A stretch of 53,351 nucleotides of DNA, filler included, from Malassezia furfur (lineage: Eukaryota): the NCBI GenBank assembly GCA_052055015.1. It is 2 parts of 2 records of this genome, joined end to end, with 100 filler letters (N's around TTAATTAATTAA, not from the genome) between each part and the next. Parts side by side here need not be neighbours in the genome. Positions count along the whole stretch, not along the records: positions 26,801 to 53,351 come from JBQJIT010000123.1; 1 more part is not named here. The stretch is one strand, 5' to 3'. The notes below the pieces were generated by a model that was not told the origin of the DNA, did no database searches, and saw nothing but the letters and a program-made list of their open reading frames with translations. A program made the position numbers and the translations under genes. How positions within the stretch are numbered: the stretch's first letter is position 1; each line of letters begins with the position of its first letter. Below are positions 41,768-45,554 of the stretch, piece after piece.

Positions 41768-42974
41768 ATGTTAACTCCGATGTTCCGTGGGCTCGTGTAC
41801 CGTAGCGTGCGGCCTACCGTAAACTGTCTCGCATCTTCCCTCTCGCGACGTACCTTTGCCCAAATGACGGTCCCTGAAAGCATGCGCGCGGTCCTGATTC
41901 GCGACAAGGTCGGTCCCTCGAGTGCGCTGTACATAGGCGAGGCACCCACCCCCAAGCTCACCGACACGCCACAGAGCGTGCTGGTGCAAGTGAAGGCATT
42001 CGGCCTGAACCGTATGGACCTGCTCCAGCGCGAGGGTAAGTATCCTATTCCTCCTGGAGCAAGCCCGATCCTGGGTGTCGAGTTCAGCGGGAACGTCGTC
42101 GATGTCGGCCAGGGTGTTAAGCACCTGGCCGTCGGGGACCCTGTATTTGGTCTCGCGACCGGTGGCGCCTACGCCGAGTATATCCGTGTCCCCGAGGAGA
42201 TGGTGCTCAAGAAACCAGAGGCAATCAATTGGGTGCAGGCTGCGAGTATGCCCGAAGGTGCGTGATGCGCGCTGATGCAGCGTTCTTGACCGCGTTCCAG
42301 GCACTCCGCGTGCTAGGCTCGTTCAAGGCAGGCGAGGACCTGCTGGTGCACGCAGGTGCGTCCGGTGTGGGCCTTGCGGCCATCCAGCTTGCCAAGGCAG
42401 AGGGTGCGCGTCGCATCTACGTCACTGCTGGGTCACCCGAGAAGATTGCATTCTGCAAGCAGCTTGGAGCCACAGACGGATTCAACTACAAAGAGGGCAG
42501 CTGGAAGGACAAGCTGATGGAGGCGACCAACGGCGAGGGTGTGGACGTCATTATGGACTTTGTGGGCGCGCCATACTTTGAAGACAACTTGGCATCCCTG
42601 AAGCGCGACGGGCGTCTGACGATGCAGGGCTTTATGGGTGGCGCCAAGGTCAAGGAGGTAAACCTGGGCACGCTCCTGACGAAACGCTTGCGTATTGAGG
42701 GCAGCACGCTGCGGAGCCGCTCGCTGGAGTACCAATCGAAACTGGTGCAAGACTTTTTCCACAGCGGCGGCCTGGACTCAATTGTGCGGGGTGTGGAGAA
42801 CCACGACGAAGGCACGCGCCTGGTCGTGTGGGGGACGTTTGACTGGAACGAGATCGCCAAGGCGCACGACGCGATGCAAGCGAACAAGAGTACGTCGTTT
42901 ACCCACTCACACAGACACGGGCAAGAGTGCGTGGACGTTGCGAGGCTTACGCAGTTGTTGCTACCATTTCGTGA
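41768..42974 (+). CDS. NADPH:quinone oxidoreductase, PIG3-like MDR family, with probable mitochondrial presequence
   Basis: KAFGLNRMD, GVEFSG, GGAYAEY, HAGASGVGLAAIQLA, GSTLRSR and NTGKIV. Introns 42258-42280 (23), 42890-42914 (25) and 42927-42954 (28). Confidence 0.92.
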
Positions 42975-42986
42975 AACTAGAATACA

Positions 42987-43668
42987 TTAGCCCGAGAACT
43001 CGGCCCGCCGTGGCACCGACGAGGCAGTCACCGGCTCCTTTTTCACCTCGCCGGAGGCCAAACTTGCATCGTAGCGCTCGCGGATCGAGGCAAACACCTG
43101 GTCGAGATTTGCGATGGCGTCGCGGAACGCGTCGACCGCCGACACGGTGTGCTCTGCGGTTAGTCCGTTCCCAAACGCGAGGAGAATTCAGTAGGAACAA
43201 TTGGAAATGCGTATAACTGCCAGTCCATCGCCATAGCTCGGCTTCGGAAAGGTGTCATCCCAACACCAATTGGCCTAGACACTCACCATTCATCTGGACA
43301 CGCATGTGGATTTTGCTCTCGGATGGATGGGGAATGCTGCGTGTGAGCGGGCGGCGACAACCTACGTATAACCGCAAAACTCCACGCGTGGGCTGCCGTT
43401 AGCATGCTCTTGGTATACATTGCCCCTCAGAAACGAAGAATTCCAAGTTTGTATTCCCCCATGACGCTTGCAAAGCAGGTCTCGGGACACAATGGGTATA
43501 ATCTTCGGGGCCTGAGTCGACGTACTCTTTCATCAGCATGTACCGCAGCGCATTGCCGAGGGTATGATCTTCATCCTGGATACAGAACGTGACGGCGGTG
43601 AGCGCAGCGTCGTGTCCAGGAAGCAGGGTGATCTTCCCATGCACGGCCGAGGCGTCCAGCTCGTCCAT
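42987..43668 (-). CDS. RPC19: RNA polymerase I/III shared subunit AC19
   Basis: [31 protein letters not shown] after splicing introns 43393-43525 (133), 43337-43365 (29) and 43154-43286 (133); TAA at 42987-42989. Confidence 0.94.
43185..43265 (-). ncRNA. Intronic box C/D snoRNA, snR41/SNORD62-like (guide for the 18S Am541 equivalent)
   Basis: C-like GGGAUGA (43261-43255), D' CCGA, C' GCGAUGG and D CUGA (43191-43188). Guide UCCAAUUGUUCCU is complementary to the conserved 18S AGGAACAAUUGGA (recalled from memory). Ends approximate. Confidence 0.82.
43422..43512 (-). ncRNA. Intronic box C/D snoRNA, snR57-like (guide for the 18S Gm1572 equivalent)
   Basis: D box CUGA (43430-43427) preceded by ACUUGGAAUUCUUCGUUU, complementary (1 GU, 1 mismatch) to 18S AACGAGGAAUUCCUAGU (recalled from memory). 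Degenerate C box CCGAAGA and a GCCCC/GGGGC terminal stem. Ends approximate. Confidence 0.78.
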
Positions 43669-43774
43669 CGTGGTGCAGGCGCAAAATTTGCACGGCACTC
43701 GGCACGGACGCGCATGTGCTGACAAAGCGTGCCGGTTGGCCCCCAGGCACGGCCACGGTCTCACCGCCGCCGCC

Positions 43775-45554
43775 ATGTCGTGGAGACTGGGCAAGAGTAT
43801 GTGGGGAGACATTGACGCAGAATTGCGCGAAAGCTCGAGCTTTGCATTTGGGCCCCCGAGGGTTCCGTCGCCCGTCGACCGCTCCACGACGCCAAAACCC
43901 AACGCCCCAGCACCGAGTACGAAGGAGGCCTCGACGCCGAAGCCTGCCCAGGCGCGGGGGGACGATGCTGCGCAATCGGACCTACTCGCGGTGAGTGTCG
44001 TGACTGCGCGCGGTCTGTCGCTTCCCTCTGGAAAGGTGCTCGCAGAAAAATCGGGTGATGCGCTACAGAGCAAATCGCTGCGCGAGCGCCAAACCTTCCT
44101 ACCCTACGTGGTGTTGGAATTCGACAAAAACGAGGTGCTGATCCTTGCCTCGAGTGGTGACCTATCAGCGCCGCAGTGGCAGTTCACCGCCTACTTGTAC
44201 GTGCCGTGGCTGACGCAGTGACATCTCGCGCAAGACCGAAGTCAGCCTACACGTCTACCTGCGCGGCGAGGCCGTTGCACCGGCAGCCGCGACCAGTTTC
44301 GGCATCATGGGCATGTTCCGCAGCTCGACACCCAAAGCGGAGGACCAGCATGGGGGACAGCGGAAGCCGATGCGGGACCTAATGGGGGAGAACGACGTAT
44401 ATCTGGGAACGGCGAAGCTGGTGCCGTCGTTTGAAAGCGCGCGCGCCATGGACACCTGGCTGCCAGTCTCGGGCGGTACGGGCCAGATCCATGTGCAGCT
44501 CGCATTCAAGCCACAGCAAGGTCATTCGTTGTCGATTGAGTCGTTTGAGCTGCTCAAAGTCATCGGCAAAGGCAGCTTCGGCAAGGTGATGCAGGTTCGC
44601 AAGCGCGACACAAACCGGATTTACGCACTGAAAATCATTCGCAAGGCGCACATTATCTCACGCTCCGAGGTGACGCACACGCTGGCCGAGCGTACGGTGC
44701 TTGCCCAGGTCAACAGCCCATTCATTGTGCCGCTCAAGTTCTCCTTCCAGAGCCCCGACAAACTGTATTTGGGCCTCGCGTTTGTCAATGGTGGCGAGCT
44801 CTTCCATCACCTCCAGCGAGAGGGGCACTTCTCCGAGGAGCGCGCTCGCTTCTACACAGCCGAGCTCTTTTGTGCACTCGAGCATCTGCACGACTTCAAC
44901 GTGATCTACCGCGACCTGAAACCGGAAAACATCCTGCTCGATTACACCGGGCACATCGCCCTGTGCGACTTTGGTCTGTGCAAACTGAACATGGGCGACA
45001 AGGAGACGACGCACACCTTCTGCGGTACGCCCGAGTACCTCGCGCCGGAACTGCTGCTGGGTCGTGGTTACACCAAGTCTGTCGATTGGTGGACGCTTGG
45101 AGTGCTGCTTTACGAGATGCTCACCGGCCTTCCGCCGTTCTATTCGGAGGACGTCAGCGAGATGTACCGCAAAATTCTCCACGACCCGCTCACATTCCCC
45201 CCCGAGGTGCAGCCTGACGCACGCGACTTGCTGACGCGTCTGCTGCACCGCGAGGCAAGCGAGCGCCTCGGCTATGGACCACACGGCGCTGCCGAGATTA
45301 AAAGCCATCCATTCTTTACCAAGCATATCGACTGGGCACTGCTCCTTGCGAAAAAAGTGCAGCCGCCGTACAAGCCCGGGGTACAGTCGACGCTGGACAC
45401 GTCCAACTTCGACCCGGAGTTTACGAGCGAGCCTGCCCAAGACAGTGTGGTGGACGAGAGCCATCTGATCAGCGCTGCAAACCAAGAACAGTTCTCGGGC
45501 TTCAGCTACAATGCTGGTGCCGAGAGCGTGAGCGTGGGCAACTCCTGGCAATGA
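43775..45554 (+). CDS. YPK1: AGC Ser/Thr kinase Ypk1/Gad8
   Basis: C2-like LPYVVLEFDKNE, IGKGSFGKV, YRDLKPEN, DFGLCK, TFCGTPEYLAPE and hydrophobic motif FSGFSY; 22-nt intron 44197-44218. Confidence 0.95.

Follow-up and report, generated by a model that had tools for sequence, protein, structure and literature searches.

A putative snR41/SNORD62-type box C/D small nucleolar RNA in the third intron of the RPC19 gene of Malassezia furfur

We analysed a stretch of 53,351 nucleotides from Malassezia furfur (GenBank assembly GCA_052055015.1), which consists of two parts of two genome records joined by 100 filler letters and is referred to as the window throughout, and found that the third intron of an RPC19-like gene on its minus strand very probably encodes a box C/D small nucleolar RNA (snoRNA) of the lineage that includes snR41-I of Schizosaccharomyces pombe, CD13 of Neurospora crassa and SNORD62. 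If expressed as predicted, this RNA would be about 80 nt long, extending from about 5 nt before box C to about 5 nt after box D, and would add to the lineage a member that had not been annotated before, in an intron new as its host, an assignment made from sequence comparison. The gene and the element belong to the part of the window that comes from JBQJIT010000123.1 (positions 26,801 to 53,351). A first inspection of the bare sequence (hereafter, the sequence-only reading) had already proposed an snR41/SNORD62-like snoRNA in RPC19 intron 3; the minus strand at 43185–43265 indeed reads as it was written there, and the proposal itself is backed by orthologues, by a family profile and by the register of the guide on 18S ribosomal RNA (rRNA). 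The most likely function of the snoRNA is a single methylation, equivalent to Am541 of yeast.

Conservation of the element at the orthologous RPC19 intron of other genomes is the decisive evidence. A metagenome scan with the pattern GATGA-N(40-70)-CCAATTGTTCCTNCTGA yielded at least 110 loci, and the flanks of 80 of them were taken; six of the 110 listed loci (L002, L022, L045, L087, L097 and L102) looked chance-like by eye and were dropped from later counts. With the spliced RPC19 protein as the query, tblastn showed that 4 of the 110 listed loci (L066, L082, L018 and L064) have the element flanked by RPC19 exons, and a permissive tblastn search for RPC19 exons at the remaining listed loci added none, the extra matches all having E values of at least 31. 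L082 is the same sequence as L066, so there are three distinct RPC19-hosted loci besides the window. In each of them, the element follows an exon ending in RVQM-x-G, so that its intron position agrees with that in the window; the RPC19 genes of these loci have one additional upstream intron. Several features are shared by the four copies even though they lie outside the search pattern, namely a GG before GATGA, a CNGA-type D' box followed by G and located 12–15 nt after box C, and the octamer TATACGCA directly before the guide. The identity between the window and the orthologues is 0.68–0.81 over the C-to-D unit, 0.57–0.74 over the stretch from box C to the guide, 0.28–0.66 in the intron flanks and 0.62–0.76 in the adjacent exons.

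The host gene encodes an RPC19/AC19-like protein in four exons on the minus strand (43668–43526, 43392–43366, 43336–43287 and 43153–42987), which join into an open frame of 387 nt; the frame is restored only when the intron at 43286–43154 is taken out. This third intron, 133 nt in length (43154..43286), has a GTGAGT 5' splice site, a CTAAC branch sequence at 43163–43159 and a CAG 3' splice site, and the element fits between these signals, with the start of box C located 25 nt past the 5' splice site and the end of box D 27 nt before the branch A. Exon 3 (43287..43336), which was assigned from the open spliced coding sequence and its RPC19-like translation, ends with IPHPSESKIHMRVQMN, and the RVQM-x-G|GT arrangement at its end recurs in L066, L018 and L064. 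Exon 4 (42987..43153) continues up to the stop codon, and in L064, L066 and L018 the element is likewise followed by homologous exons. Intron 2 (43337–43365; GTAGGT…CTCAC…CAG) measures 29 nt and is required because an in-frame TAG follows the preceding exon; its orthologues are 27 nt (L066), 27 nt (L018) and 43 nt (L064) long. The predicted 29 nt would be unusually short for a fungal spliceosomal intron.

The C-to-D unit of the element is 74 nt long, with the box D CUGA located within 60–100 nt of box C, and all of its parts are on the minus strand. Box C (43255..43261) reads GGGAUGA and is identical in the three RPC19-hosted orthologues; the purine at the first position and the GA..GA core are present, and the U at position 2 is replaced by G, making the box non-canonical. 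Box D (43188..43191) is invariant in the family, though it was demanded by the search pattern, and is separated by a single A (43192) from the D guide UUUCCAAUUGUUCCU (DNA TTTCCAATTGTTCCT; 43193..43207), whose U at 43196 occupies the fifth position before box D. The octamer UAUACGCA (43208..43215), found in all four RPC19-hosted copies, is a candidate accessory pairing element. The sequence-only reading had described a complete set of C, D', C' and D boxes, and all four can be found, with some revision of the internal pair. The C' box had been placed at GCGATGG (43230–43224), whereas both the family alignment (A2, see below) and the profile alignment assign it to AUGGCGA (43228..43234), which is of the family type AUG-N-N-GA; at this place, A2 contains a near-invariant TG..G (ATGAGGA, ATGACGA, ATGCCGA). 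The position of the D' box in the window copy is ambiguous because two CCGA motifs (43247–43244 and 43241–43238) compete for it. The second of these aligns with the CNGA-then-G of the orthologues; the family profile instead aligned the first, which would give a 7-nt spacer and an AGC-CGA-GCU mini-hairpin ahead of C'. The segment between box C and the second CCGA, CACCUUUCCGAAG (DNA CACCTTTCCGAAG; 43242..43254), is what the sequence-only reading took for the D' guide, and it can fold as a CUU-UCCG-AAG hairpin.

Pairing of the guides was analysed on stand-ins and not on this species' own rRNA, the stand-ins being eukaryotic ribosomal DNA (rDNA) that contaminates prokaryotic assemblies and was annotated with Rfam. 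One of them, L124, includes complete small subunit (SSU), 5.8S and large subunit (LSU) rRNAs, and four others (L131, L113, L121 and L132) are complete SSUs of 1795–1796 nt. The D guide forms 13 Watson-Crick and 2 G-U pairs with AGGAACAATTGGAGG in the 18S of two complete fungal-type stand-ins, in agreement with the 13-nt pairing that had been claimed for it, and the guide nucleotide five places before box D lies opposite A538 of L131 and A539 of L124. The target site is present in all five complete stand-in SSUs, with the A at 537–539, and would be expected in the 18S of M. furfur as well. On the stand-in 18S, the element has an rRNA complement of at least 10 nt located 1–2 nt before box D, and its fifth position falls on a known site of 2'-O-methylation. 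The 18S sequence that the assignment calls for is AGGAACAAUUGGA, and the predicted methylated A has the context AGG[A]ACAAUUGG. Within the 18S target AGGAACAAUUGGAGG, the selected A would correspond to Am541 in yeast, Am538 in N. crassa and Am590 in human. Methylation at Am541/Am590 is among those traced to the last eukaryotic common ancestor.

The choice of the A after GG by the D+5 rule, and its equation with yeast Am541 and human Am590, had been given in the sequence-only reading; the choice is borne out on the stand-ins, and the numbers agree with those published (PMC5199042, PMC3511168). In the N. crassa list, CD13 appears as an intronic RNA that directs 18S-Am538 through its D guide, with S. 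pombe snR41-I, yeast snR41, Arabidopsis snR41Y and human U62A/B as homologues (PMC2780460). Am543 of AtsnoR41Y, Am590 of U62a and Am541 of snR41 are likewise equated, the site being given as conserved in plants, human and yeast (PMC3511168), and the yeast table assigns both Am541 and Gm1126 to snR41, with an Am541 occupancy of about 95% (PMC5199042). As for the source of the stand-ins, eukaryotic 18S that contains the 25-nt motif without mismatch occurs in at least 30 contigs assigned to bacterial genomes or metagenome-assembled genomes (MAGs; L111–L140) and represents contamination; one of these is a 24-kb rDNA array in a Bryobacteraceae MAG bin, with a group I intron in the LSU. A scan of viral contigs for the 18S motif gave no matches.

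The family to which the element belongs was characterised through alignment A2, which comprises 86 of the 96 unique sequences; six chance-like sequences and the three RPC19-hosted ones were left out, as was L030, which nearly duplicates L028 from a shifted start. A sequence-only profile made from A2 (R1) matches the window at 43248–43185 with 26.7 bits and an E value of 3.3e-7, which is its only match in the window at E values up to 10, and gives 23.9–27.4 bits on the three RPC19-hosted orthologues. The guide CCAAUUGUUCCU-N-CUGA and the family box layout that mark the snR41-I/CD13 subfamily are both found in the window copy, with the guide and box D being shared by search design.

Several observations weigh against this assignment. 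The guide and box D served as seeds for the metagenome set and account for much of the R1 score, so that neither is independent of the first observation. Box C departs from RUGAUGA at the normally conserved U. No terminal stem is detectable: RNAduplex pairing of the flanks was equalled by 159, 124, 104 and 246 of 300 shuffles for the window and the three orthologues, respectively, and inspection by eye reveals weak pairing only (U-A, G-U, U.U, G-C, G-U). Finally, Rfam produced no matches in the window at the gathering score, and the permissive match of the snR41 model (RF01218) amounts to 17.8 bits (E = 5.2) where 50 bits are required. The Rfam comparison that had been suggested at the outset points to the expected family only below threshold, and the element can rightly be called hidden. 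The Rfam failure weighs little because among 20 other family loci, 17 of them outside the RPC19 group, there is no snR41 or SNORD62 match at E values up to 1 either; the Rfam models do not cover the fungal subfamily of the snR41-I/CD13 type. A single unrelated match, to SNORD98 (E = 0.68), was seen among these 20 loci.

The departure in box C and the missing terminal stem could mean that the RPC19 copy is a decaying or inactive relic which fails to assemble into a small nucleolar ribonucleoprotein (snoRNP), methylation being ensured by another copy, for example in an RSE1/SF3B3 intron; such a second copy in the genome is conceivable given that 51 of 70 homologues analysed for their hosts reside in RSE1 introns (see below). 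We consider this explanation quite improbable. GGGAUGA persists in the three orthologues, which have diverged to the point that their intron flanks share just 28–66% identity with the window, and the essential GA dinucleotides of boxes C and D are intact. Among the 86 other family members, position 2 of box C is occupied by T in 72 cases, by A in 9 and by C in 5, and never by G, so that 14 members have no U there, and at least seven of these (L003, L014, L047, L049, L054, L069 and L091) are located in conserved RSE1 introns; a non-U nucleotide at this position is common in the family, with G confined to the RPC19 group. For N. crassa CD50, the box C given is AGGAUGA (PMC2780460, Additional file 1). 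In the fungal survey of Canzler et al. (PMC5824354), box C positions other than the first are given as at least 99.7% conserved, non-canonical candidates having been filtered out beforehand, and such filtering may explain why copies of this kind escape the pipelines. Mere chance juxtaposition of motifs in an intron is a still weaker explanation, to the point of being hardly credible. It is true that a 13-nt Watson-Crick complement to any stand-in rRNA site 0–2 nt before CTGA arises in 62 of 600 simulated windows (about 10%), and that an 11-nt guide scan of the window gave 3 sites against a simulated mean of 3.94, with no enrichment. Once NGATGA 45–110 nt upstream is added to the 13-nt criterion, however, only 3 of the 600 simulated windows qualify, and the real window contains exactly one such site, the intron 3 element. 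Moreover, the target is a known methylated site hit in the exact register, and three further genomes have retained the element in the orthologous intron.

A different alternative accepts the snoRNA and grants it two guides, the 13-nt segment before the second CCGA directing a lineage-specific second methylation, for example at the G of 18S CUUC[G]GAAGGG at about position 190 or at an LSU site. The best stand-in match of CACCUUUCCGAAG is to 18S CUUCGGAAGGG at about 187–197, with 10 Watson-Crick pairs and one G-U pair, and would select G190/191; the pairing begins at position 1 from D', its target CTTCGGAAGGG is present at about 186–197 in five of the five stand-in SSUs, and the CNGA-then-G position of D' is conserved in the four RPC19-hosted copies. 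An equal score is, however, reached by 16 of 300 shuffled guides, and the corresponding segments of the orthologues are wholly different, and their best matches do not rise above chance (equalled in 171, 75 and 245 of 300 shuffles). Furthermore, the segment folds on itself, a D' box at 43247–43244 would leave 7 nt of it, and the 18S hairpin at about 190, although present in all five stand-in SSUs, lies in a variable region, with no methylation near 18S-190 in either the yeast table (PMC5199042) or the passages of the N. crassa table that were consulted. The LSU sequence CUUCGGGA, which had been put forward as a possible weak second target, is absent from the top matches, and this suggestion is not supported. 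The accompanying remark that the D' guide does not match the Gm1126 site of snR41 was correct, as the Gm1126/Gm1122 site is unmatched by the window segment; the N. crassa list places this function in N. crassa and S. pombe on a separate RNA, CD9/snR41-II (PMC2780460). In the family at large, the segment more often pairs beside the Am541 site: 20 of 72 unique C-to-D' segments contain a 7-mer complement to SSU 500–549, compared with a shuffle mean of 3.4 and a maximum of 8, and segments such as AAGGGAU, GAAGGGAUUUAA and UACUCAUUCCAAU in A2 are complementary to 18S 500–534, directly 5' of the Am541 duplex. This pairing looks like the ‘extra base-pairing’ described by van Nues et al. (PMC3116282) and not like a second methylation guide. 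The window segment lacks it and is probably not a guide, which makes a dual-guide snoRNA unlikely.

Returning to the single-guide snoRNA, its usual genomic context was examined by running Pfam on 76 translations of same-strand flanking open reading frames (ORFs) from 70 loci. RSE1/SF3B3-type ORFs (PF23726 and/or PF03178) were identified at 51 of these loci, an upstream AA_permease_2 ORF at 6, Ribosomal_L11 (beside RPL12) at 1 and no family at 12. At all six loci where the ORFs of both sides were analysed, PF23726 is found upstream and PF03178 downstream. The usual host in the sample is one intron of RSE1/SF3B3 (SF3b130), which separates the second beta-propeller from the CPSF_A region; RPC19 hosts a snoRNA with the Am541 guide in only a minority of cases and is unusual in this role. 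Judged by titles and the beginnings of abstracts, none of the papers listed in a literature search concerns an RPC19-hosted snoRNA. The main text of ‘The fungal snoRNAome’ mentions no snR41, CD13, host gene or SNORD62, and its supplement may list the family and its loci; snR41 and U62 are not mentioned in the main text of van Nues et al. 2011 either.

The route by which the RPC19 copy would act follows established box C/D biology. The RPC19 pre-mRNA would be spliced, the kink-turn formed by boxes C and D would be taken up by Snu13, Nop58, Nop56 and Nop1/fibrillarin, and the debranched intron would be trimmed by exonucleases to the protected core. The 13–15-nt guide before box D would then pair with 18S AGGAACAAUUGGAGG, the 5' strand of helix 18, positioning fibrillarin to 2'-O-methylate the first A after GG, the equivalent of yeast Am541.

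The octamer directly before the guide may contribute to this interaction. Its UAUACGC is complementary to 18S GCGUAUA, found in the stand-ins at 592–598 and 54 nt from the target A on its 3' side, and in L066 and L018 the complement is lengthened to 8 nt. Among 88 unique spacers, which include the RPC19 copies and in which relatives are not independent, 11 contain an 8-mer complement to SSU 575–624 (50 shuffles: mean 2.06, maximum 4) and 20 a 7-mer complement to the same region (50 shuffles: mean 8.5, maximum 19). It can be speculated from this complementarity that UAUACGCA adds 7–8 bp with 18S GCGUAUA(U) across helix 18. A broader scenario would combine these traits, with the RPC19 copies forming a sublineage that is characterised by GGGAUGA and the absence of a terminal stem, that has exchanged the usual pairing 5' of the target for UAUACGCA, and that has moved from RSE1/SF3B3 to a gene for a subunit of RNA polymerases I and III. 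In this complete form the scenario is tentative, and we would not bet on it. If it were true, the pairing of UAUACGCA with GCGUAUA 54 nt downstream would let the snoRNA hold helix 18 (the 530 loop) from both sides, and the presence in RPC19 of the Am541 guide together with an snR57-type guide in intron 1 would tie the supply of two 18S methylation guides to the expression of the polymerases that transcribe rRNA.

The latter guide belongs to a second conserved box C/D snoRNA candidate, located in RPC19 intron 1 (43393–43525, minus strand). It consists of a degenerate box C GAAGAUUA (43506–43499), a D' box within CCCGAGAC (43486–43479), a C' box within CAUGGGGG (43463–43456), the guide UUGGAAUUCUUCGUUU (43446–43431) and a box D CUGA (43430–43427), all on the minus strand. 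A copy also occurs in the corresponding intron of L066, L018 and L064, with box D reading AUGA there. The ends of the element can form a terminal stem, GCCCC/GGGGC in the window, for which L066 has the covarying GUCCC/GGGAC. Pairing of the guide is with 18S AACGAGGAAU(U)CC, expected in this species as AACGAGGAAUUCC at about 1565–1577, and places position 5 on G1572 of the stand-in L124; in the yeast table, the homologous site, 18S Gm1572, is that of snR57 (PMC5199042). Rfam gave no match to the intron 1 element at E values up to 10.

Folding of intron 3 by minimum free energy (MFE) was uninformative (z-score −0.68). A palindrome located 5' of box C, CCAAUUGG (43266–43273, minus strand), is able to pair with CCAAUUG of the guide, and the resulting predicted stem dominates the MFE fold of the intron; it was dismissed because the palindrome is absent from the orthologues, and is probably incidental. 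RPC19 is neighboured on the opposite (plus) strand by an AGC-type protein kinase gene at 43568–45554, Pkinase/Pkinase_C-like by Atlas features, and by a long ORF at 42121–42990, also on the plus strand, whose end adjoins the RPC19 stop codon.

Both the RNA family and its target are well established, and the gain from these observations is mostly one of annotation. They fill a gap left by Rfam-based annotation, apparently across the whole fungal subfamily, and document host switching of one snoRNA, which resides in RSE1/SF3B3 in most of the sampled fungi and in RPC19 here. A box C that has been conserved in nature with G replacing the normally invariant U provides a test case for the tolerance of the Snu13 kink-turn, and the accessory pairing and the RPC19 host with two snoRNAs are small, testable leads.

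Among the known RNAs, N. crassa CD13 (EU780937; Liu et al. 2009, PMC2780460), equated in that paper with S. pombe snR41-I, is the closest described relative of the window copy, being listed as an intronic single-guide RNA in the range of about 80–84 nt with the guide CCAAUUGUUCCU before box D, the D+5 register on 18S-Am538 and, as in the window, a C' box of the AUG-N-N-GA type. The two differ in that CD13 is listed with a canonical AUGAUGA box C, a length of 84 nt, a 12-bp guide and AAGGGAU after box C, whereas the window copy has GGGAUGA, a 13+2-bp guide, the UAUACGCA octamer and RPC19 as the host. S. cerevisiae snR41 (RF01218, clan CL00068) shares with the window RNA the target Am541 and the guide core CCAAUUGUUCC followed by N-CUGA. 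In the Rfam consensus of snR41, unlike in the window, the Am541 guide stands before an internal CUGA (D') and a second guide serves Gm1126, and the gene is part of the snR41-snR70-snR51 cluster (PMC3596301); the window RNA would have a terminal-D guide, no Gm1126 guide and a protein-coding host. Human SNORD62A/B (U62; RF00153, CL00068) and Arabidopsis snoR41Y, which appear in the N. crassa list as homologues of CD13, have the homologous target (Am590 and Am543, respectively) and hosts other than RPC19; Rfam, which keeps only the best match of a clan, reported no SNORD62 match to the window at E values up to 10. The RSE1/SF3B3-hosted fungal homologues in A2 have the same guide, box D, type of C' and layout as the window copy; they differ from it in that most of them carry U at box C position 2 (72 of 86) and many pair their C-to-D' segment 5' of the target, which the window copy does not.

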